DNA of 64,000 nucleotides from a phage. Under the pieces are notes generated by a model. That model was not told where the DNA came from, did not search any database, and saw nothing but the letters and a program-made list of their open reading frames with translations. Below, piece after piece: positions 1-56,360 of this stretch (positions within the stretch are counted from its first letter, which is position 1; the number at the start of each line of letters is the position of its first letter). The stretch lies in the NCBI GenBank assembly GCA_018175275.1, contig GCA_018175275.1_4531.1; one strand, given 5' to 3'. The translations under genes and the position numbers were made by a program.

Positions 1-116
1 TACAATAGAAGTTGTACCATTGTTTTCAGATGTGTATTTTTCTGGATGGAAAAGAAAAACTGCATTGCCGTTACCATCTTCAAACACGTGTTTTTCTAAT
101 AGAGACATTGTTCCTC

Positions 117-368
117 CTAATCTGTTAGTTGTTCGTCCTCTACCAAGTTTGACACGAGAACGTCTGTTATACATTGATGCTGATAAACCCTTTCGGGACT
201 ATCATCAAAAGCCAAACCTGTGCAAATAGAACAGAGGTCTGATTCCTTGATGACTCCATTTTTATCACGTCTGGAGTGGTTTGTCAAATGCCTATTACAA
301 GCACGGCACCTAAAATAAAAACTATTTTGCATATATCCTTCGAACCCCAAATGGGGAGTGATCGGCAT
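117..368 (-). CDS. hypothetical Cys-containing small protein
   Basis: 83-aa track ORF co-directional with 406..591; SD-like GAGGAG abuts the ATG so start is uncertain. Confidence 0.3.
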   Translation of the reverse strand: MPITPHLGFEGYMQNSFYFRCRACNRHLTNHSRRDKNGVIKESDLCSICTGLAFDDSPERVYQHQCITDVLVSNLVEDEQLTD

Positions 369-405
369 CTCCTCACTTCTAGTTTAGCACGAAGGATATC
401 TTAAG

Positions 406-591
406 TCAACTAGGAATAATTTTATCCTTTTTGGTTTCATAACCAGTCCAATCTAAATCCTCCCAGCCTTCATCATCGTCTAACACATTGTCATCGTCAT
501 AAGATGCAATGTTATAAATAGAACGTGGATTACAAGACATACAATCTTTAATAGGCACATGATGCCATTTGCACGGATTCTCACTAATCAT
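406..591 (-). CDS. hypothetical acidic small protein
   Basis: 61-aa ORF; GGAGGT 5 nt upstream of ATG on minus strand. Confidence 0.5.
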   Translation of the reverse strand: MISENPCKWHHVPIKDCMSCNPRSIYNIASYDDDNVLDDDEGWEDLDWTGYETKKDKIIPS

Positions 592-599
592 TGCACACC

Positions 600-1070
600 T
601 CCATTCTTGTTAAGATGTTCCGTACTGTACTTCATACTAATCTATAGATCAAGTATTATTTATAATAATTTATTATTTTATTTTTTAATTGATAGAAGTT
701 GATCTGTACGTACCAGTTCTGATACACTGTACCTGTTTGTTAGATCTAATAATTATTTATTATTAATATTTAATAATTATTAATCTAGTACGGAGTACAG
801 TACTTGAGTACAGAGTACTACATCAACAACCTAAAACCTTAACTCGCTGCGCTCGTTAATAGATTTCTAGGGTAGCATACTTCGAACACAAAAGTCAAGA
901 GTTTTATTAAAATTATTTTCTGTGTGCAAAAAACCTTGCTTAAATAGGTAGCAATAGTATAGCCTATAACATAAGCTTCATAAGAGGCTCGTAGAGCAAG
1001 TTCACTTACTAGGTAAGGTGATTTATCATCTTATATATAAAAAGTGCGTCAGAGACGCGTTTAGGAGGCT
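600..1070. promoter_or_regulatory. AT-rich divergent control region with GTAC-rich inverted repeats
   Basis: No ORF; repeated GTACTGTACT / AGTACAGTAC motifs flank a ~150 bp A+T tract; separates minus- and plus-strand gene blocks. Confidence 0.4.
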
Positions 1071-1073
1071 AGA

Positions 1074-1397
1074 ATGAGATTTACAAGACAAGAGGTAGTT
1101 GTGCTGGACGAAGCAATGACAATGATCGTCTTTTACTACGAGGATATCTTCTGTGCAGCATATCATTTAAATGATATTCAGATTGAATGGCAGCAGATAG
1201 CATTCCTGTTGGACAAGAGTAATCATTTGGATGGCTTTGAGTATTTGGAGTGGGATGGTGCAAAGGAAGTTAAAATTGTAGGGTTAAATCACGATCAGAT
1301 TGTTGACATGCAATGTAAGTTGTGTCATTATCAGTTCTCAAACAAAGTCAAACTCGAAAGGCAATTGGAGGTGGTTAAAGATGATAGCACTAATTAG
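1074..1397 (+). CDS. hypothetical protein
   Basis: 107-aa ORF; TAGGAGG 5 nt upstream of ATG. Confidence 0.55.
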   Translation: MRFTRQEVVVLDEAMTMIVFYYEDIFCAAYHLNDIQIEWQQIAFLLDKSNHLDGFEYLEWDGAKEVKIVGLNHDQIVDMQCKLCHYQFSNKVKLERQLEVVKDDSTN

Positions 1398-1497
1398 TGA
1401 GAACCCAATCCTGACAACAATTGTTCTGATTTTTGCCATGTGTGTGGTTCACGATGTTCTGGTAAGTTATTTTGACAACAAAGGAGGTAAGAAATGA
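1381..1497 (+). CDS. small hydrophobic peptide (38 aa)
   Basis: Internal ATG of track ORF 1300..1497; GGAGGT 8 nt upstream; hydrophobic core ILTTIVLIFAMCVV; stop overlaps next ATG. Confidence 0.35.
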   Translation: MIALISENPILTTIVLIFAMCVVHDVLVSYFDNKGGKK

Positions 1498-1688
1498 AAG
1501 ACGTTATTCAAATGGTATTCCGTGTCACCCTGGATGATATTCATGTTGTTAAAGGCACCCAGAACTACACAGAAGCGAAAGAACATTTCCTGGAATGGGT
1601 TGAGACGTTGAAGACACAAAACGTTTCCTACAACCGTGTGACGCTCACTGGCGACCATACCCCAATCATGGAGTACGTAAAGAAATGA
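1494..1688 (+). CDS. hypothetical protein
   Basis: 64-aa ORF; AAGGAGGT upstream. Confidence 0.55.
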   Translation: MKDVIQMVFRVTLDDIHVVKGTQNYTEAKEHFLEWVETLKTQNVSYNRVTLTGDHTPIMEYVKK

Positions 1689-1924
1689 GCAAATATCCAA
1701 TTACAGGTGTAACCTATTCTTGTGTATCAAAAGGTGGCTTATATACGGTCGTGGAATTTCCAAAACCTGCCGGAATATCTAAAGTGTTTGATCCTGTTGT
1801 TATCTATGAAGATCTTAGAACAGGTCAACGTTATTGGAGATTTGTGAATGACTTTTTAGATCGTATGGAGGTAGTAAGTGGCGAAAACACCGAAGAAGTT
1901 ATCAAAGCCAAAGAACGTTACTAA
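1685..1924 (+). CDS. hypothetical protein
   Basis: 79-aa ORF; ATGA start-stop overlap with upstream gene. Confidence 0.5.
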   Translation: MSKYPITGVTYSCVSKGGLYTVVEFPKPAGISKVFDPVVIYEDLRTGQRYWRFVNDFLDRMEVVSGENTEEVIKAKERY

Positions 1925-2231
1925 GAAACCGAAAAACGAGGTTCTCAAAGTAGCCAAATCAGTTCCTAAGAAAGATAAGTTTGATACGGAGGCATTCGTC
2001 TTTGACACACCAATCGAGAAGATTGAAGAAGCGTTGCAACGTCTTGAGGAGCAGGAGGCAGATCCAATGGCTGAACCACTCACGGCAGACCAAATCTATT
2101 GGTGGGGAATATGGACTTTGCAACTGCCAGAAGCAAAAAGAAGAGGAATGACTTCAGTTCCTACTTGTGCAAAAGAAGCTGCTGTGTTAGGTTTGTATGA
2201 GAAATCTAAAAAGAGGAGCAAAAAGAAATGA
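1878..2231 (+). CDS. hypothetical Lys-rich protein
   Basis: 117-aa ORF, GTG start with GGAGGT 5 nt upstream; overlaps 3' end of 1685..1924. Confidence 0.45.
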   Translation: MAKTPKKLSKPKNVTKKPKNEVLKVAKSVPKKDKFDTEAFVFDTPIEKIEEALQRLEEQEADPMAEPLTADQIYWWGIWTLQLPEAKRRGMTSVPTCAKEAAVLGLYEKSKKRSKKK

Positions 2232-2509
2232 TCAAGACTTTCCTGAAGTGTGTAAAAGCAACAGATAGTGAGTGGTACTCTGGATTATTCACTGTTGGCA
2301 AGAAATATGAGATCCTCAACGGGACAGGCAAGAAGTTTTCTCTCGTTGTAAACGATGAAGGCACGAAGCAAATGGTATTTGCTGAAAGCTCTGTCTATGG
2401 TATCTTTGAAGTGGTGCAAGAAGGCTCTCCAATGATTCTGGAGTATCATGGCACTAATAAACCATATACTGCTATGGATGTTATCAACAACAAGAGGAAT
2501 GCAAAATGA
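2228..2509 (+). CDS. hypothetical protein
   Basis: 93-aa ORF; GAGGAG upstream; ATGA overlap. Confidence 0.55.
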   Translation: MIKTFLKCVKATDSEWYSGLFTVGKKYEILNGTGKKFSLVVNDEGTKQMVFAESSVYGIFEVVQEGSPMILEYHGTNKPYTAMDVINNKRNAK

Positions 2510-2688
2510 TTTTGCTCTATTCCGGTAAGGCAAAATACATGCAAGGTGTTAAACGCGTAGAGGTTACTAGGACAGTAACAATAGGGAAATCTTTTATCGT
2601 TTATTGTTTCCTTGTTAATGGGAAGGAGTATGCTGTAGCAAAGACCTTGGTTGATAATGGTAAAACTTGGAAAGTGGAGGCACTATGA
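2506..2688 (+). CDS. hypothetical protein
   Basis: 60-aa ORF; ATGA overlap; AGAGGAA upstream. Confidence 0.5.
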   Translation: MILLYSGKAKYMQGVKRVEVTRTVTIGKSFIVYCFLVNGKEYAVAKTLVDNGKTWKVEAL

Positions 2689-2882
2689 TCACTGTAGCTG
2701 GGTGGGTGGTATTGGCAACACTTAATGGGAATGTTACTGTGGAGACTAAAACCATCTTCAAAGCACCAGAAGATTGCTATAACTCCTTGGTAACTTGGCC
2801 TCGTGATGAGGATGATAAGGCAGAGTATCAGTGTTTTTACATTGAGGGTAAGCCTGTAGAATTTGAGGTGAGGGTGAAATGA
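2685..2882 (+). CDS. hypothetical protein
   Basis: Internal ATG (residue 7 of track ORF 2667..2882) with GTGGAGG upstream and ATGA overlap. Confidence 0.5.
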   Translation: MITVAGWVVLATLNGNVTVETKTIFKAPEDCYNSLVTWPRDEDDKAEYQCFYIEGKPVEFEVRVK

Positions 2883-3364
2883 AAATAAAAATTACTAAAG
2901 CACATGTAGATAACCCACAATTCTTTTCTTTGAATACAAGCTACGATATTAAAAACGGAGATGAGTTTGATGTTGTTGATATTGTAACAGATTCCGATGG
3001 CGTGGATTTTGGATATATGATTGTTCCTCCTTGTGGCGGTAGTCCTATTGTTGTATTGCGTGACGAAGCTGTAGAAGTGAGTTATGATGAATCCCAATAC
3101 GACAGTCCATATATGACAGAGTGGATCGTGGCTGTAGATGTTGGAGGTATGGTTTCTGTACTGAAAGCTCCAAATCTCCACCCTGGTTTTACAGAGAACG
3201 GTAAGACAGCTTTGGATTATGGGTTGCCAGAAGATGTTGAGAATACACCGCCAGGTATGTACCGTTGGATTTGCTCTTTCCATGAAGAGAAGGATTGGGA
3301 ATCAGGGCTTGTGGAGGATTGGCATTTTGAAGTGGAGAGTTCTTTTTTAATCATGCCTGCTTAG
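2879..3364 (+). CDS. hypothetical protein
   Basis: 161-aa ORF; GAGGTGAGGG upstream; ATGA overlap. Confidence 0.55.
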   Translation: MKIKITKAHVDNPQFFSLNTSYDIKNGDEFDVVDIVTDSDGVDFGYMIVPPCGGSPIVVLRDEAVEVSYDESQYDSPYMTEWIVAVDVGGMVSVLKAPNLHPGFTENGKTALDYGLPEDVENTPPGMYRWICSFHEEKDWESGLVEDWHFEVESSFLIMPA

Positions 3365-41399: not shown

Positions 41400-41720
41400 G
41401 TATTATTCACTTGTGAGACACAATGTAACATAAGCTTTGTGAGTTTGTCAAGGATCTAATTACATTCTACAGAAGAAGAGGGTTAATAACTATAGGAATA
41501 GTCTTACTATAGGTGCAATACTAGTTAAGAGTTAGATTGATAGGTAAGACTTATCTTAAACAGATAATTGATAGGTGAATCAGCATTGACTTTTTCAAAA
41601 AAATATGGTACCCTAAACATATGTTTACGAGCGATAGCGAGTAGTAGATTTCTATATAATAATGTTTCATGTTACTCACGATAGTGAGGTATGAAACGTA
41701 AGTGAAGGTAGATAAACTAT
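41400..41720. promoter_or_regulatory. ORF-free regulatory region with direct repeats and long hairpin
   Basis: Direct repeats ATTGATAGGT (x2) and ACTATAGG (x2); nested hairpin GTTTCAT..CTCAC-GATA-GTGAG..ATGAAAC; promoter-like TTGACA on minus strand. Confidence 0.4.
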
Positions 41721-53803: not shown

Positions 53804-54013
53804 TTATGCATCCTTCAGACCCTTAATAAAGTAACGACCAACCGGATTCCCTCGGAAGTATTCGTTAATGAAATCGATAACACACGTTTCACTGCCTGTC
53901 ACAACGGACGGCTTAAAGTTTTGGAATTCTACAGCTACACGGCTGGCTTTAGCCAGTGCTTGCACACGTGTAGGATCAGTCAAGAACATTGTGACAGTTT
54001 TCAAATTCTTCAT
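53804..54013 (-). CDS. hypothetical protein
   Basis: 69-aa ORF; GAGGAGATG upstream. Confidence 0.55.
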   Translation of the reverse strand: MKNLKTVTMFLTDPTRVQALAKASRVAVEFQNFKPSVVTGSETCVIDFINEYFRGNPVGRYFIKGLKDA

Positions 54014-54062
54014 TTCATCTCCTCATTGGCTATCTGTTATGTCATCCATTATACAAACATCT

Positions 54063-54431
54063 TTATTCAATGCAAGCATTATTTGCATCTTCAATGCGAT
54101 CTTTCACCCATTGAAGACGTAACGTGTTGGTATGACACGCCAAGTTTATACACTCTGAAAGGTAATCCATGCAATCTGCATTGAACGGAAGATTGTAGTC
54201 CAGCCCTGCACATGTAAATTGTTTCCTCATTTCATATTTCAAACGGTCTAACAAATGATCACGCCATCTTCTATCTTCTTCTCTAGTTGCCTCACCAACA
54301 AAATCATCTACATAATCTACCAGACAACCACATAAGCCACTCGTTGTGCGATTCATTGCAGGATAGTTGGCAATCCATGCTTTGTAGAAGCGAAGCAATG
54401 TTGCACTACTCAACGGAATATTATTTGTCAT
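54063..54431 (-). CDS. paralog family A protein
   Basis: Internal ATG of track ORF 54063..54446 with AAGGAGAG upstream; FYKAWIA, GLCGCL, PFN, RLQWVKDRI. Confidence 0.55.
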   Translation of the reverse strand: MTNNIPLSSATLLRFYKAWIANYPAMNRTTSGLCGCLVDYVDDFVGEATREEDRRWRDHLLDRLKYEMRKQFTCAGLDYNLPFNADCMDYLSECINLACHTNTLRLQWVKDRIEDANNACIE

Positions 54432-54765
54432 TTTTCTCTCCTTCATAATCCTGAATTCTATCTAGCACCCATTGTATACGATGTTTGTTTTTATGGCAAA
54501 TATGTTTTTTATGTTCGAAGGTGTATTCCTCATAACCACCTTCATTAAACGGGAAATTGTAATCTAGTCCTGCACCAATAAACTGGGATTTCATCTCTTG
54601 TTGTAGACGAGGTAACAGTTCATCAGGGTATGTTCCCTCTACATACTTAATCAAACATATGCACAAGCCACTCGTTGTGTGACCTTCTACCTCACCAGCA
54701 AGCCAAGCTTTGTAAAACTTCATTAGACGTAAACTACTTAACGGAACATTTTTACTCTCTTGCAT
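54421..54765 (-). CDS. paralog family A protein
   Basis: FYKAWLAG, GLCICL, PFN, RIQWVLDRI; AGAGGAGAT upstream. Confidence 0.6.
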   Translation of the reverse strand: MQESKNVPLSSLRLMKFYKAWLAGEVEGHTTSGLCICLIKYVEGTYPDELLPRLQQEMKSQFIGAGLDYNFPFNEGGYEEYTFEHKKHICHKNKHRIQWVLDRIQDYEGEKNDK

Positions 54766-56360
54766 GACAATCTCCTCTCATCGTTAGCCATCTTTCATGG
54801 CAATCATCAATCACCAACATCATACGATCAATCTTAAGGAATTACAATCGAATTACCATAGGGGATTCCTATCAATTATCCCATATATACCGATTATTTT
54901 TGACACCCCACTCTTGTATAAAAAGTAACCCAAAATATCTACGGGGAGAGATTATTTCGGGACACCTTGTTTCATGGCAATCATGGCAAGAATATCTAAT
55001 AGAATCAATATCCTATGGCAAAAATCATGGCGCATACGTAAGAAGTGCTTAACGCGAATTTTCGGGCCGTCAGGTCCACGCAGCGACAATTCCCAAATAT
55101 CATGCGAATGAGAATAATTATCATTCGTATTCAATGACTTATGCAAGGCTCATGCCAACATAGCGACAAGGTGGGCCACCTGATTATAAATCACACAAAT
55201 ACTTATTTATCAATGGTTTGGCAACTTCATCATATGACGGAACACTGTCAACTAATCCCGCTCATGACAAGCAGACTATTATTTATATGAGAATGATTAT
55301 TATTTAAACGTTTATTAACATAAAAACTAAAATAAATCAAGAATTTTCTGATTTTATTTACGTTTAAGAGAACTTGCTCAACATTCCCGCCTGTGGCGGT
55401 AACATTTCGCCCCCAAAATTATTGACTTTTATTCTATTATGTGCATAGTGTGCAATGTATCGGAATGATGATAATCATCCTCCCATTGCCCCCATAATTA
55501 TTGCCTTGCTAATCTTTTCATTGCTAATCATTACAATGATTATTGTTATTGCGCTAATGTTATGATCTTGGTAATTACATATAATGCTAATAATAAGCCA
55601 GCGCAATAAGTGTAAGCGTCATTACGCTTGCAATTATTGCAAGCTACGCAGTAACAAGAAATAACCGTCACCGATGGTTATGATTGTTGGGGTGTAGTTG
55701 GCTTATTATTAGCTCGCTATGTGTCCGGCATAGCGTGCTAATGATGACTCTGTGAATGATTCGTTTTGTAATGATTTCATTCATGCACTATTTTGCTAAT
55801 AGTTATTATTTTAATGGTTTCGTTTGTTATTGTTCGTTAGTTGGTTGTTTTGTCGTGTTATCGTTATTTTGCTTAGTATTCATCATGGTTTGATTGTTTG
55901 TCGTTATCAATCATCTTGCTATTATTCCTTTGATTATGATTAGTTTGCTTATTGTTTTATGTTGTTTGTTGGTTAGTTGTTGCGAACTATTATCAACATT
56001 ATAATTATGCGCTTATATTGCATAGATAATCATGGGTAGATGATAATGGTTATCATTGCACTAGAAAGGAGGTAAAAGGGTGTTTTTGATGGTTTGTTGT
56101 TGGTTGTTGATCGATTTTAACCGCTCTAAATGGCTCTCTAACAGCCTGTAACCCTGGGAGGTATGGTTATTCGTTTGCTGGTTGATTAGCTCGATACCGC
56201 GATTTATTCAGTTTTGTTCTGTGTCGGTTTTTCATAGGCGGAACCTATTGAGAAGATGATAAATAAACTTGTTTGTTATTGTCTGATTAATAGGGTTAGT
56301 CTATCAACATTGTTCGGGCAAAAAGAAAGGGCGCTTGGTGCGCCCTTGTTTTGTTGTCAA
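54766..56360. other. ORF-free island with iterons, palindromes and strand-compositional skew
   Basis: No ORF >=60 aa with SD on either strand over about 1.6 kb; six (T/C)GCTAAT copies at 55505-55805; C-poor G+T-rich plus strand 55800-56000. Confidence 0.5.
56318..56348 (-). terminator. rho-independent terminator
   Basis: Minus strand AAGGGCGCA-CCAA-GCGCCCTT followed by UCUUUUU. Confidence 0.55.

Follow-up and report, generated by a model that had tools for sequence, protein, structure and literature searches.

Several regulatory systems that rely on a short DNA motif or on closely packed promoters have been described. Methylation by Dam regulates the promoters IS10 pIN and dnaA P2 and that of Tn5, and GATC sites are clustered at oriC and at the oriR of P1. 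In Caulobacter, CcrM and its motif GANTC serve bacterial cell-cycle control, the motif being scarce genome-wide and kept in regulatory intergenic regions. Among phage switch regions, the pR and pL promoters of coliphage 186 stand face-to-face and PR and PRM of lambda back-to-back. At the T7 primary origin and at oriF and oriG of T4, a promoter is followed downstream by an A+T unwinding element.

The locus described here lies within a 64-kb window (the whole stretch of DNA that was analysed) belonging to a Phapecoctavirus (phAPEC8-like) coliphage genome; nepoznato, a close relative, has a full genome of 150 kb. The phage is virulent and has no lysogeny module. By analogy with the Dam systems, a short palindromic motif would sit on -10 elements or beside A+T-rich DNA, with a methylation state that tracks replication; the differences are that the motif would be GTAC and not GATC, that the enzyme would be a phage-encoded orphan NPPF methyltransferase, and that the genome is otherwise depleted of the motif and holds a single cluster of it. 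As with CcrM and GANTC, a depleted motif is retained at a regulatory region, but here in a lytic phage, so that the comparison is an analogy only. The predicted sigma-70 promoters, divergent and convergent, closely spaced and overlain at their cores by repeated sites, recall the 186 and lambda switches, from which the locus differs in having neither a repressor gene nor a lysogeny module. The predicted promoter P_R2 is followed, within about 15 nt of its start, by 35 bp of pure A+T, as at the T7 and T4 origins; unlike those, this arrangement is found in the GTAC-bearing lineage only.

A further counterpart is found in phage rV5, whose densest GTAC cluster genome-wide lies in the intergenic region ORF78-ORF79 (DQ832317, 65,020-65,240) and adjoins a 45-bp A+T tract. 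Both regions contain ATCTAGTAC and AGATCT words, both belong to a leftward block upstream of tRNA genes, and both phages encode homologous methyltransferases. The rV5 region, however, holds only 4-5 GTACs, has no alignable homology beyond 9-mers, and possesses four 19-bp palindromes and an adjacent GntR-like gene, neither of which is present here. The large virulent coliphages of the rV5, phi92 and phAPEC8 types are common in phage-therapy cocktails, yet their regulation is essentially unmapped, their promoters and origins lacking experimental determination; a literature search found no published promoters or transcriptomes for phages of the subfamily, nor a methylome for the phAPEC8 lineage.

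Predicted promoters and the GTAC sites

Judged from its sequence, the locus is a divergent control region, or promoter hub, between the leftward and rightward gene blocks. The first leftward gene (406-591, minus strand) encodes a Cys-rich protein of 61 aa (nepoznato_13), with phrog_26411 as its sole match and no Pfam match, and is followed by an 83-aa ORF, a tRNA array, the terminase and structural genes. The first rightward gene (1074-1397, plus strand; 107 aa) heads a block of RNA-ligase, PNK, DNA-ligase and nucleotide-metabolism genes, and its homologues served as the anchor for a comparison of five Stephanstirmvirinae lineages. The result is a compact control region with four predicted promoters, for which starts are predicted near 617 (P_L1, minus strand), 735 (P_R2, plus strand), 862 (P_L2, minus strand) and 1036 (P_R1, plus strand), and possibly near 808 (right arm, plus strand).

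The two innermost promoters are predicted to be of the sigma-70 type. P_L1 (624-652, minus strand) consists of a -35 element TTGATC (652-647), a 17-nt spacer and a -10 element TACAGT (629-624); a first GTAC, at -13 to -10, supplies the -11 adenine, and a second one lies at -8 to -5. P_R2 (699-728, plus strand) has the same -35 hexamer (699-704), a spacer of 18 nt with TG at 720-721, and the -10 element TACACT (723-728). In the window both match the consensus at only 8 of 12 positions, and because of this low score P_L1 is not reported by a standard promoter scan. A promoter nevertheless occupies this position in each of the five lineages, the variants being TTGACT or TTGACC, spacers of 17-18 nt, and TAGAGT, TAGTAT or TACACT. 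Further to the right, the predicted P_L2 (843-898, minus strand) combines TTGACT (898-893), an 18-nt spacer and an extended -10 element TGcTACCCT (877-869) with a conserved box CGAGCGCAGCGAG (855-843) at about +8 to +20; it belongs to a class with three copies per genome that is conserved across the subfamily. P_L2 is predicted to be convergent with P_R2, and its transcription path would cross the GTAC array. Finally, P_R1 and its leader (1001-1073, plus strand) comprise TTCACT, 17 nt and TATCAT (1001-1029), a hairpin GCGTCAGAGACGC (1046-1058) and the ribosome-binding site AGGAGG (1062-1067), with the counterparts TTGACA-17-TATCAT in FKP3 and TTGACT-17-TACCAT in Tr1. P_L1, P_R2 and P_L2 are present in five of five lineages and P_R1 in three, the scores in the window being 8-9 of 12; the first three occupy the same aligned positions in the five lineages although the intervening sequence is unalignable. 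It is on the -10, spacer and +1 positions of the hub promoters that the GTACs fall.

The motifs named in a preliminary description of this DNA were recovered in the places given there, with GTACTGTACT at 622-631, GTACs starting at 788, 795, 800, 808 and 815, GTACGTAC at 706-713, a further GTAC at 729, and TGTAC at 626, 705 and 728. The inverted orientation was likewise seen: the left arm GTACTGTACTTCATACTA (622-639; GTAC at 622 and 627 and a degenerate ATACT at 634) is identical at 16 of 18 positions to the reverse complement of the right arm GTACTGTACTCCGTACTA (786-803), and a repeat search extends the inverted repeat to 56-nt arms with 71% complementarity. The right arm runs into the tandem units GAGTACAGTACTT and GAGTACAGAGTACT (793-819), the whole element spanning 786-822. 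What that description had missed is that one repeat arm is a promoter core. The dyad symmetry lies over that core, since the left arm covers the P_L1 -10 element, and a local dyad, GTACTTGAGTAC, is present as well; the right arm together with the A+T tract beside it looks like P_L1 duplicated in inverted orientation, with an identical TACAGT-AC and GTACs again at -13 to -10 and -8 to -5 but without a -35 hexamer. The central GTACs (706-732) are formed by GTACGTAC at 706-713, inside the P_R2 spacer, and by the GTAC at 729-732, at -6 to -3 of P_R2. Taking GTAC as the target, which is an assumption, the -10 regions overlapped by it are those of P_L1, of its inverted copy and of P_R2 (the last at -6 to -3).

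Between the arms, about 150 bp of A+T had been described. The length is right, as positions 634-786 make up 153 bp with 82% A+T, but the segment is not uniform and falls into three parts: tract 1 (653-698, 91% A+T), a 49-bp mixed core (61% A+T, with three GTACs), and tract 2 (748-782, 100% A+T). Tract 1 lies between the two back-to-back -35 elements and probably acts as an UP-element or bendable upstream region common to P_L1 and P_R2; a tract of at least 40 bp is found at its place in phi92, FKP3, Tr1 and phiWec188. Tract 2 is specific to the GTAC lineage and, by alignment, is not present in the other four.

GTAC scarcity and a lineage-specific methyltransferase

GTAC is depleted in these genomes, a feature that had escaped the preliminary description. 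The 64-kb window contains 73 copies, against 177 expected from trinucleotides or 225 from base composition, and the genome-wide ratio of observed to expected is 0.29-0.41; the depletion is stronger in the phAPEC8-type genome (0.29) than in phiWec188 (0.62) or rV5 (0.53). Against this background, 10 GTACs are packed at 622-818, in about 200 bp. The whole 150-kb genome of nepoznato has 131 GTACs, 10 of them in the hub locus, and the next-best 250-bp window has 4. At a background rate of 0.2 per 200 bp the Poisson probability of 10 or more is 2e-14, and the largest cluster across 100 first-order Markov simulations was 5. The motif is therefore well above genome background, the point on which the preliminary description could have failed: 10 copies stand against 0.2 per 200 bp. 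Other close GTAC pairs in the genome were considered and set aside, since they fall within coding regions and appear fortuitous.

The same lineage encodes an NPPF amino-methyltransferase (nepoznato_229, outside the window), a link that had also been overlooked. The protein carries motif I as VEPSAGEGAF (EPSAGxG) and motif IV as GNPPFG (NPPF), and its residues E36, P37, G40, G42, N85, P86 and P87 are invariant across 32 homologues. It has no Pfam match; its N-terminal half matches phrog_799, 'DNA methyltransferase', solved structures gave weak profile matches at best, to Ta1320 and to the rRNA methyltransferase METTL5, and some homologues are labelled 'predicted RNA methylase'. At 95% identity or more the enzyme is found in 65 records, the same number as the phage records with a GTAC-type locus, the agreement being one of counts and not of record sets matched one by one. 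The enzyme had no matches in phiWec or Justusliebigvirus phages, and rV5-type phages have a homologue at 54% identity. This agreement between cluster and enzyme stems essentially from one evolutionary lineage plus rV5.

Searches of names, Pfam and PDB for a GTAC specificity of nepoznato_229 gave no result; such a specificity is suggested by its distribution and by data from Bas51, an rV5-type phage. Native nanopore sequencing of Bas51 yielded methylated adenines at 509 GTAC positions in the wild type and at 511 in a GATC-methyltransferase mutant (PMC12548924, supplementary Fig 4f data). GTAC m6A is documented in this rV5-type phage only. The GATC enzyme is a different type of protein (D79, T83-NPPF), and a second enzyme of the ORF235 type in rV5-type phages could be the GTAC methylase.

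Proposed methylation-sensitive control and its alternatives

The GTACs on the hub are probably regulatory sites, and possibly sites of methylation. As the preferred reading, it is tentatively proposed that the GTAC cluster provides methylation-sensitive control of the promoters at the hub; this is possible, though we hold it with less than even confidence. In this model, P_L1 and P_R2 would fire back-to-back from a common 46-bp A+T upstream tract, P_L2 would fire back into the hub, and P_R1 would adjoin the first gene of the rightward block. Remodelling of the hub in the phAPEC8 lineage would have placed an inverted duplicate of the P_L1 core (-10 TACAGT within GTAC-A-GTAC) beyond a second A+T tract, and more GTACs in the spacer and start region of P_R2. 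The GTACs would then act in cis as regulatory sites whose adenines are methylated by the NPPF enzyme specific to this lineage; in P_L1 as in the inverted duplicate, the adenine open to methylation would be that at -11, within the -10 hexamer. If virion DNA is fully methylated and newly replicated DNA hemi- or unmethylated, these differing states may lead to different transcription, and the output of the hub may therefore be coupled to replication, in the manner of Dam methylation at IS10 pIN or at the dnaA promoter. The GTAC cluster, its uniqueness, its place relative to conserved predicted promoters and the equal record counts are observed; that the promoters fire, that a nepoznato_229-type enzyme methylates GTAC, and that methylation alters promoter activity is inferred. 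A stronger version, which we consider unlikely, is that a virulent phage possesses its own epigenetic switch, in which a GTm6AC methyltransferase encoded by the phage would mark the -11 adenine of the duplicated -10 elements in the sole GTAC cluster, and the state of parental versus new DNA would time either transcription of the tRNA and late block or the firing of an adjacent A+T unwinding element. If the methylation link is true, a phage-encoded orphan methyltransferase would serve regulation, beyond anti-restriction alone, and this would account for a palindrome that is shunned across the genome yet gathered at a single locus; should the link fail, the map of promoters and the class with three copies keep their value as annotation.

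The preliminary description had offered an origin or a divergent operator region bound by a dimeric regulator. An origin, in which one or both A+T tracts unwind between clusters of GTAC and GATC methylation sites and the promoters on either side provide activation or priming, appears rather improbable. It would fit the occurrence of the GTAC-cluster element once per genome, the pure A+T of tract 2, which sets in about 15 nt past the predicted start of P_R2, the GATC or AGATCT boxes that flank the A+T tracts, the T7-like replication proteins (DNA polymerase, primase-helicase), and the comparable rV5 region, where the spacing of the four palindromes, 21-22 bp, recalls the lambda origin. Cumulative GC skew also reaches its global minimum at the hub locus, but the curve has two minima and two maxima that track gene orientation, so that skew, which follows the direction of transcription, is uninformative as an origin marker; the rV5 authors reached the same conclusion. 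The usual origin signatures are lacking: a single DnaA box (923-931, minus strand) stands against 1.8 expected per 541 bp and there is no box cluster, the GATCTnTTnTTTT 13-mer is matched only with two mismatches inside the A+T tract, and the repeat search gave no iteron family. Moreover, tract 2 and the GTAC arrays are absent from sister lineages that must replicate too, and tract 1 is accounted for without an origin by its place between two back-to-back -35 elements. The operator half of the earlier suggestion fared better as regards placement, with GTACs on the -10, spacer and +1 of promoters conserved in five lineages. A classical operator array, in which a phage or host protein binds GTACT-type half-sites to repress or activate P_L1, P_R2 and a right-arm promoter, perhaps looping arms 164 bp apart, with no role for methylation, would agree with the 18-nt inverted repeat that covers a promoter core, with local dyads (GTACTTGAGTAC among them), with tandem units at 13-14 bp spacing, and with the different three-copy motif at equivalent places in the phiWec sister lineage, as expected when a regulator and its sites co-evolve. 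No dimeric regulator was found among the seven proteins encoded nearby: none is annotated as DNA-binding by Pfam or PHROG, and the small ones (83/71 aa and 61/63 aa) are kept in phiWec188 despite wholly different repeats, with no co-variation. No TrpR or IHF match and no proper LexA box turned up at the hub; CTAGTACG, which we take to resemble the TrpR operator, is a half-site only. As it also leaves the genome-wide GTAC depletion and the tie to the methyltransferase unexplained, the operator reading is regarded as unlikely.

Two further explanations dispense with any function of the motif as a DNA site. The GTACs may be a by-product, since G-TAC arises easily where local -10 hexamers begin with TAC (TACAGT, TACACT, TACCCT), and would then have been multiplied by duplication of the core and kept only as promoter parts. 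The left arm is indeed the P_L1 core and the right arm its inverted paralogue, another promoter at window positions 41586-41614 also reads GGTACCCT, inverted repeats in other lineages are built from P_L1-like and P_R2-like cores with other sequences, and BI-EHEC changes TACAGT to TACAAT with the promoters kept. Half of the ten GTACs (706, 710, 788, 808, 815), however, lie outside any TAnnnT hexamer, a single duplication would hardly yield 10 sites in 200 bp when no other stretch exceeds 4, and most of the 65 records show no variation in the cluster; this account is improbable. Alternatively, the arms might pair in P_L2 transcripts as an RNA hairpin around about 146 nt that could serve the leader of the tRNA operon and the 61-aa gene as a signal for processing or stability. 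When the minus strand 864-592 is folded in silico, the arms do pair (-59.5 kcal/mol; z = -3.3 against shuffles), but arm pairing is a trivial outcome of a DNA inverted repeat, a scan of 350-1250 gave no Rfam match, close relatives are too similar for usable covariation, and EP57 lacks one arm; such an RNA element is highly improbable.

Variation among relatives and nanopore-only records

Methylation-sensitive control would also have to accommodate the few changes seen among relatives. The left arm is deleted in EP57 and invariant in the other Illumina-type records, the GTAC at 729 is ATAC in anhysbys, that at 800 is GTGC in phAPEC8, and dw-ec misses one 15-nt unit; no single GTAC site is thus indispensable. 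A search of IMG/VR and metagenomes, by protein and by DNA pattern, for more diverse copies of the locus returned the two known types only. A comparison of lineage-specific proteins between nepoznato and phiWec188, made to pinpoint a regulator, left 46 unmatched segments at 78% identity, the two being too divergent; the methyltransferase module was an exception in it.

The nanopore-only BI-EHEC record has 67% of its GTAC sites altered, against a background of 10%, which makes GTAC the top 4-mer by far. The changes are strand-asymmetric and random-like in their ratio of synonymous to nonsynonymous (14:13), and look like GTAC-specific miscalls. DW-EC, from the same nanopore pipeline and with an intact methyltransferase (two substitutions), showed no GTAC error signature.

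In the sister lineage phiWec188/179 the hub is kept with no GTAC there, and a three-copy motif of its own, G(A/T)CTTT(T/A)AGATC, is found in that genome at the hub locus only. A genome terminus, direct terminal repeat or pac site was also considered for the locus and rejected, the ends and the 342-bp DTR of BME3 mapping to about 54.0-56.3 kb of the window and not to the hub. The nieznany record starts inside the hub locus, at what looks like an assembly break.

GTAC words in the divergent intergenic region

Window 1-3000 matched 65 phage records at 95-99% identity, all belonging to Phapecoctavirus (phAPEC8-like, Stephanstirmvirinae); Escherichia phage nepoznato, a close relative, shares 98.6% identity over this segment. 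The intergenic region under study (592-1073, 482 bp) separates a leftward block, whose first gene encodes 61 aa (406-591), from a rightward block starting at 1074 with a gene encoding a 107-aa protein. Past the window's left edge the leftward block comprises a tRNA array, terminase and structural genes, and the 107-aa gene is followed by those for RNA ligase, polynucleotide kinase, DNA ligase and nucleotide metabolism. The leftward block also carries, after the 61-aa gene, an 83-aa ORF (117-368, minus strand) with a CxxC...CxxC pattern (phrog_37033), annotated in EP57, unannotated in nepoznato and kept in phiWec188.

Ten GTAC words start in this region, at 622, 627, 706, 710, 729, 788, 795, 800, 808 and 815; they were found where the preliminary description had placed them, and the background comparison it proposed gave 10 GTAC per 200 bp versus 0.2 per 200 bp. 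The cluster is confirmed and is more striking than that description could tell, as the window holds 73 GTACs versus 177 expected from trinucleotides (ratio 0.41) and the 150 kb of nepoznato 131 versus 446 (0.29). The Poisson probability of ten GTACs within 200 bp is about 2e-14, the cluster maximum in Markov simulations never exceeded 5, and elsewhere in the genome 250 bp never hold more than 4; the few other close pairs all lie within coding sequence. GTAC depletion is lineage-specific, the ratio being 0.62 in phiWec188 and 0.53 in rV5. Avoidance of other palindromes also differs between lineages: the 150 kb of phiWec188 contain no CTAG (243 expected), and the observed-to-expected ratios in the window lineage are about 0.5 for CTAG, 0.38 for CCGG and 0.42 for GGCC.

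The two 18-nt arms, 622-639 and 786-803, are inverted copies of each other that agree at 16 of 18 positions. The A+T tract described between them was borne out in composition (82% A+T over 153 bp) but not in continuity, since it consists of tract 1 (653-698, 91% A+T), a 49-bp mixed core with three GTACs, and tract 2 (748-782, pure A+T). The right array comprises two tandem units, GAGTACAGTACTT and GAGTACAGAGTACT. Identity at the locus was 98-99% versus about 96.4% over 1-3000, so that conservation at least equals that of the flanking genes; single sites are nevertheless lost in some relatives. GTGC replaces GTAC at 800 in phAPEC8, anhysbys has ATAC at 729, dw-ec is one 15-nt unit short, and tract 1 varies in length through 10-nt duplications. 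EP57 lacks 603-640 (at 1030-1045 of the retrieved EP57 region), and with it the left arm and the -10 of the predicted promoter P_L1. The nieznany record begins inside the locus and lacks 662-728 (first 120 nt of the record); both gaps may be assembly artefacts or natural partial deletions.

A predicted promoter hub and its repeats

Equivalent regions were taken from phiWec188/179, phi92, Klebsiella phage FKP3 and Citrobacter phage Tr1, anchored on the 107-aa protein. Although the intergenic sequence is mostly unalignable across these lineages, alignment and promoter scanning found the same element set at fixed places, and the region is accordingly called here a conserved hub of predicted sigma-70 promoters, leftward (L) or rightward (R). 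P_L1 (652-624), adjoining the leftward gene, reads TTGATC, 17 nt, TACAGT, and in the other lineages TTGACT or TTGACC, 17-18 nt, then TAGAGT, TAGTAT or TACACT. P_R2 (699-728) reads TTGATC, 18 nt, TACACT with an extended-10 TG, its -35 abutting the A+T tract; in the window both score only 8 of 12 consensus positions. An A+T tract of at least 40 bp recurs across lineages and, since it sits between the back-to-back P_L1 and P_R2, tract 1 is most simply read as an UP-like upstream region common to both. P_L2 (898-869, leftward) reads TTGAC(T/A), 17-18 nt, TGcTACCCT, with the conserved box CGAGCGCAGCGAG (855-843) at about +8, and P_R1 (1001-1029), with which the built-in scan agrees, lies just 5' of the rightward gene. 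A literature search found no published transcriptome or mapped promoter for the subfamily.

The P_L2 class, with consensus TTGACT-N17/18-TG(c/g)TACCCT-N13-CGAGCG(AT/C)AGCGAG (transcribed box included), has three copies per genome, at 843-898 (-), 41586-41641 (+) and nepoznato 81918-81973, and is kept in phi92, FKP3, Tr1 and phiWec188. The nepoznato 81918-81973 copy heads a normal mRNA and the one at 41.6 kb is oriented antisense to the genes beside it. Window 940-1000 is a remnant of a 70-aa gene intact in phiWec188/179 (1659-1871 of the retrieved region), preceded by a candidate promoter, TTGCTT-16-TATAGC, at 935-962. A conserved hairpin, GCGTCAGAGACGC (1046-1058), follows P_R1 and precedes the ribosome-binding site of the gene for the 107-aa protein; the built-in scan scores it as terminator-like on the minus strand.

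The left arm coincides with the P_L1 core, reading GAA-G-TACAGT-AC-GG on the transcribed strand. One GTAC spans -13 to -10 and its adenine is therefore the -11 A; the next spans -8 to -5. In P_R2, GTACGTAC lies within the spacer and the GTAC at 729 occupies -6 to -3. Judged by sequence, P_L1 and its upstream tract have an inverted paralogue in the right arm plus tract 2: TACAGT-AC is identical, complementarity is 71% over a 56-nt arm, and the paralogue has no -35 hexamer. The right arm sits in a zone of convergent predicted transcription from P_R2 and P_L2. Inverted repeats of about 18 nt occur in other lineages too, the left arm again over the P_L1 core, with unrelated sequence, and a motif private to phiWec188, G(A/T)CTTT(T/A)AGATC, occurs there three times, all at this locus. 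Because these lineages keep the hub with unrelated repeats or a private motif, the hub is ancient and the repeats on it are lineage-specific; in the phAPEC8 lineage it gained an inverted promoter-core duplication, a second A+T tract and dense GTACs.

A candidate methyltransferase and possible GTAC modification

A two-gene insertion at nepoznato 109,352-110,587, between primase-helicase and DNA polymerase and absent from phiWec188, encodes a 143-aa protein followed by nepoznato_229, a 264-aa protein outside the window that carries the amino-methyltransferase motifs I (VEPSAGEGAF) and IV (GNPPFG), both invariant in 32 homologues. The nepoznato polymerase gene itself contains roughly 1 kb of additional sequence (112,482-113,457). 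By tblastn, nepoznato_229 occurs at 95% identity or more in 65 phage records, equal to the 65 records with the GTAC-type locus (totals, not sets, were matched); it was not found in phiWec-type or Justusliebigvirus phages, and a homologue of about 54% identity occurs in rV5-type Vequintavirinae. Pfam gave no match, the sole matches of a PDB profile search were weak (Ta1320 and METTL5), some homologues are labelled RNA methylase, and the N-terminal half matches the PHROG family to which the GATC DNA methyltransferase belongs.

In the rV5-type phage Bas51, native nanopore sequencing counted 1405 methylated adenines in GATC, 509 in GTAC and 576 in other contexts for the wild type; with T83P in the GATC enzyme the counts were 35 in GATC and 511 in GTAC (2025 study, PMC12548924, supplementary data of Fig 4f). 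A second phage enzyme thus methylates the adenine of GTAC in that group. Residues mutated in the GATC enzyme (D79, and T83 just ahead of NPPF) match the small nepoznato_62/rV5 ORF123 type and not the ORF100/nepoznato_229 type. Among the other adenine-methyltransferase types of rV5, only ORF100 has a nepoznato counterpart.

Two nanopore assemblies bear on the phAPEC8 lineage. In an alignment of ten close relatives, GTAT or ATAC stands at 7 of the 10 aligned GTAC sites of the BI-EHEC locus, and indels at 706-713 and 795-803 break two more, leaving 729 alone intact. Over about 50 kb, 33 of 49 GTAC sites differ (67%; 25 GTAT, 4 ATAC) versus about 10% for any other 4-mer, with an asymmetry independent of gene orientation and a near-random synonymous:nonsynonymous ratio (14:13, versus 912:397 for other substitutions). 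Nanopore reads were the only input to this assembly (Guppy 4.0.11, Flye, Medaka; PMC8686590), and the phage encodes the methyltransferase at 100% identity. The differences resemble the systematic miscalls that a modified motif would cause. Both TACAGT hexamers become TACAAT, which would be compatible with promoter function. DW-EC, from the same provider and pipeline (PMC8752677), has the methyltransferase with two substitutions (T6I, L136F), but the signature was not seen there, 35 of 44 GTACs being intact. Because the two records conflict, the evidence for GTAC modification in this lineage is no more than suggestive, and the enzyme is a putative DNA methyltransferase.

Possible functions of the hub

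Whatever activity we infer for the hub, it is established that the GTACs cluster, that this cluster is unique, that the architecture is conserved, and that cluster and methyltransferase gene occur in equal numbers of records. The reading ranked first, albeit tentatively, is methylation-sensitive promoter control: GTACs lie on the -10, spacer and start positions of the predicted promoters, and the -11 adenine would be the methylation target, in analogy to the Dam methylation that controls IS10 pIN and dnaA. An operator array acting independently of methylation is unlikely; the small proteins adjoining the hub contain no recognisable DNA-binding domain in a domain search and are kept in the phiWec188-type lineage, where the repeats differ. 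New here is that avoidance of GTAC across the genome goes together with one cluster on promoter cores and with an orphan methyltransferase specific to the lineage; the GTAC set would accordingly be a variant of methylation or operator control and not a new kind of element. The GTACs might also be a by-product of duplicating TAC-initial -10 hexamers, which is rather doubtful.

A transcription-activated replication origin, with the A+T tracts as unwinding elements, is likewise improbable. No DnaA-box cluster, oriC-type 13-mers, IHF site, TrpR operator or proper LexA box was found at the hub. Cumulative GC skew has its global minimum there, but the two minima and two maxima coincide with changes of gene orientation and the minimum was rejected as an origin marker, a limitation likewise reported for rV5 (PMC3606486). 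The origin or operator proposed in the preliminary description is partly supported: GTACs do lie on predicted promoter elements that are conserved in position. That the arms pair into an RNA hairpin in transcripts from P_L2 is very improbable: the arm fold has z = -3.3, but the hub matches no known RNA family.

A physical genome end at the hub was rejected, as the terminal region of Justusliebigvirus BME3, whose 342-bp direct terminal repeat was defined by PhageTerm (PMC12210895), maps to window ~54.0-56.3 kb. The long non-coding region at ~54,000-56,350, homologous to the BME3 record ends and the 342-bp repeat, is probably this phage's physical terminus.

The densest GTAC cluster of rV5 (4 in 60 bp, 65,042-65,099) lies, like the hub, between genes; it adjoins a 45-bp A+T tract and has the words ATCTAGTAC and AGATCT in common with the hub. 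The two have no alignable homology. At rV5 65,020-65,240, adjoining the GntR-like ORF79, four palindromes of 19 bp, GTGTCCGTATCACGGACAG, at a spacing of 21-22 bp precede the A+T tract and then the GTAC cluster, a layout resembling the lambda origin or an operator array.
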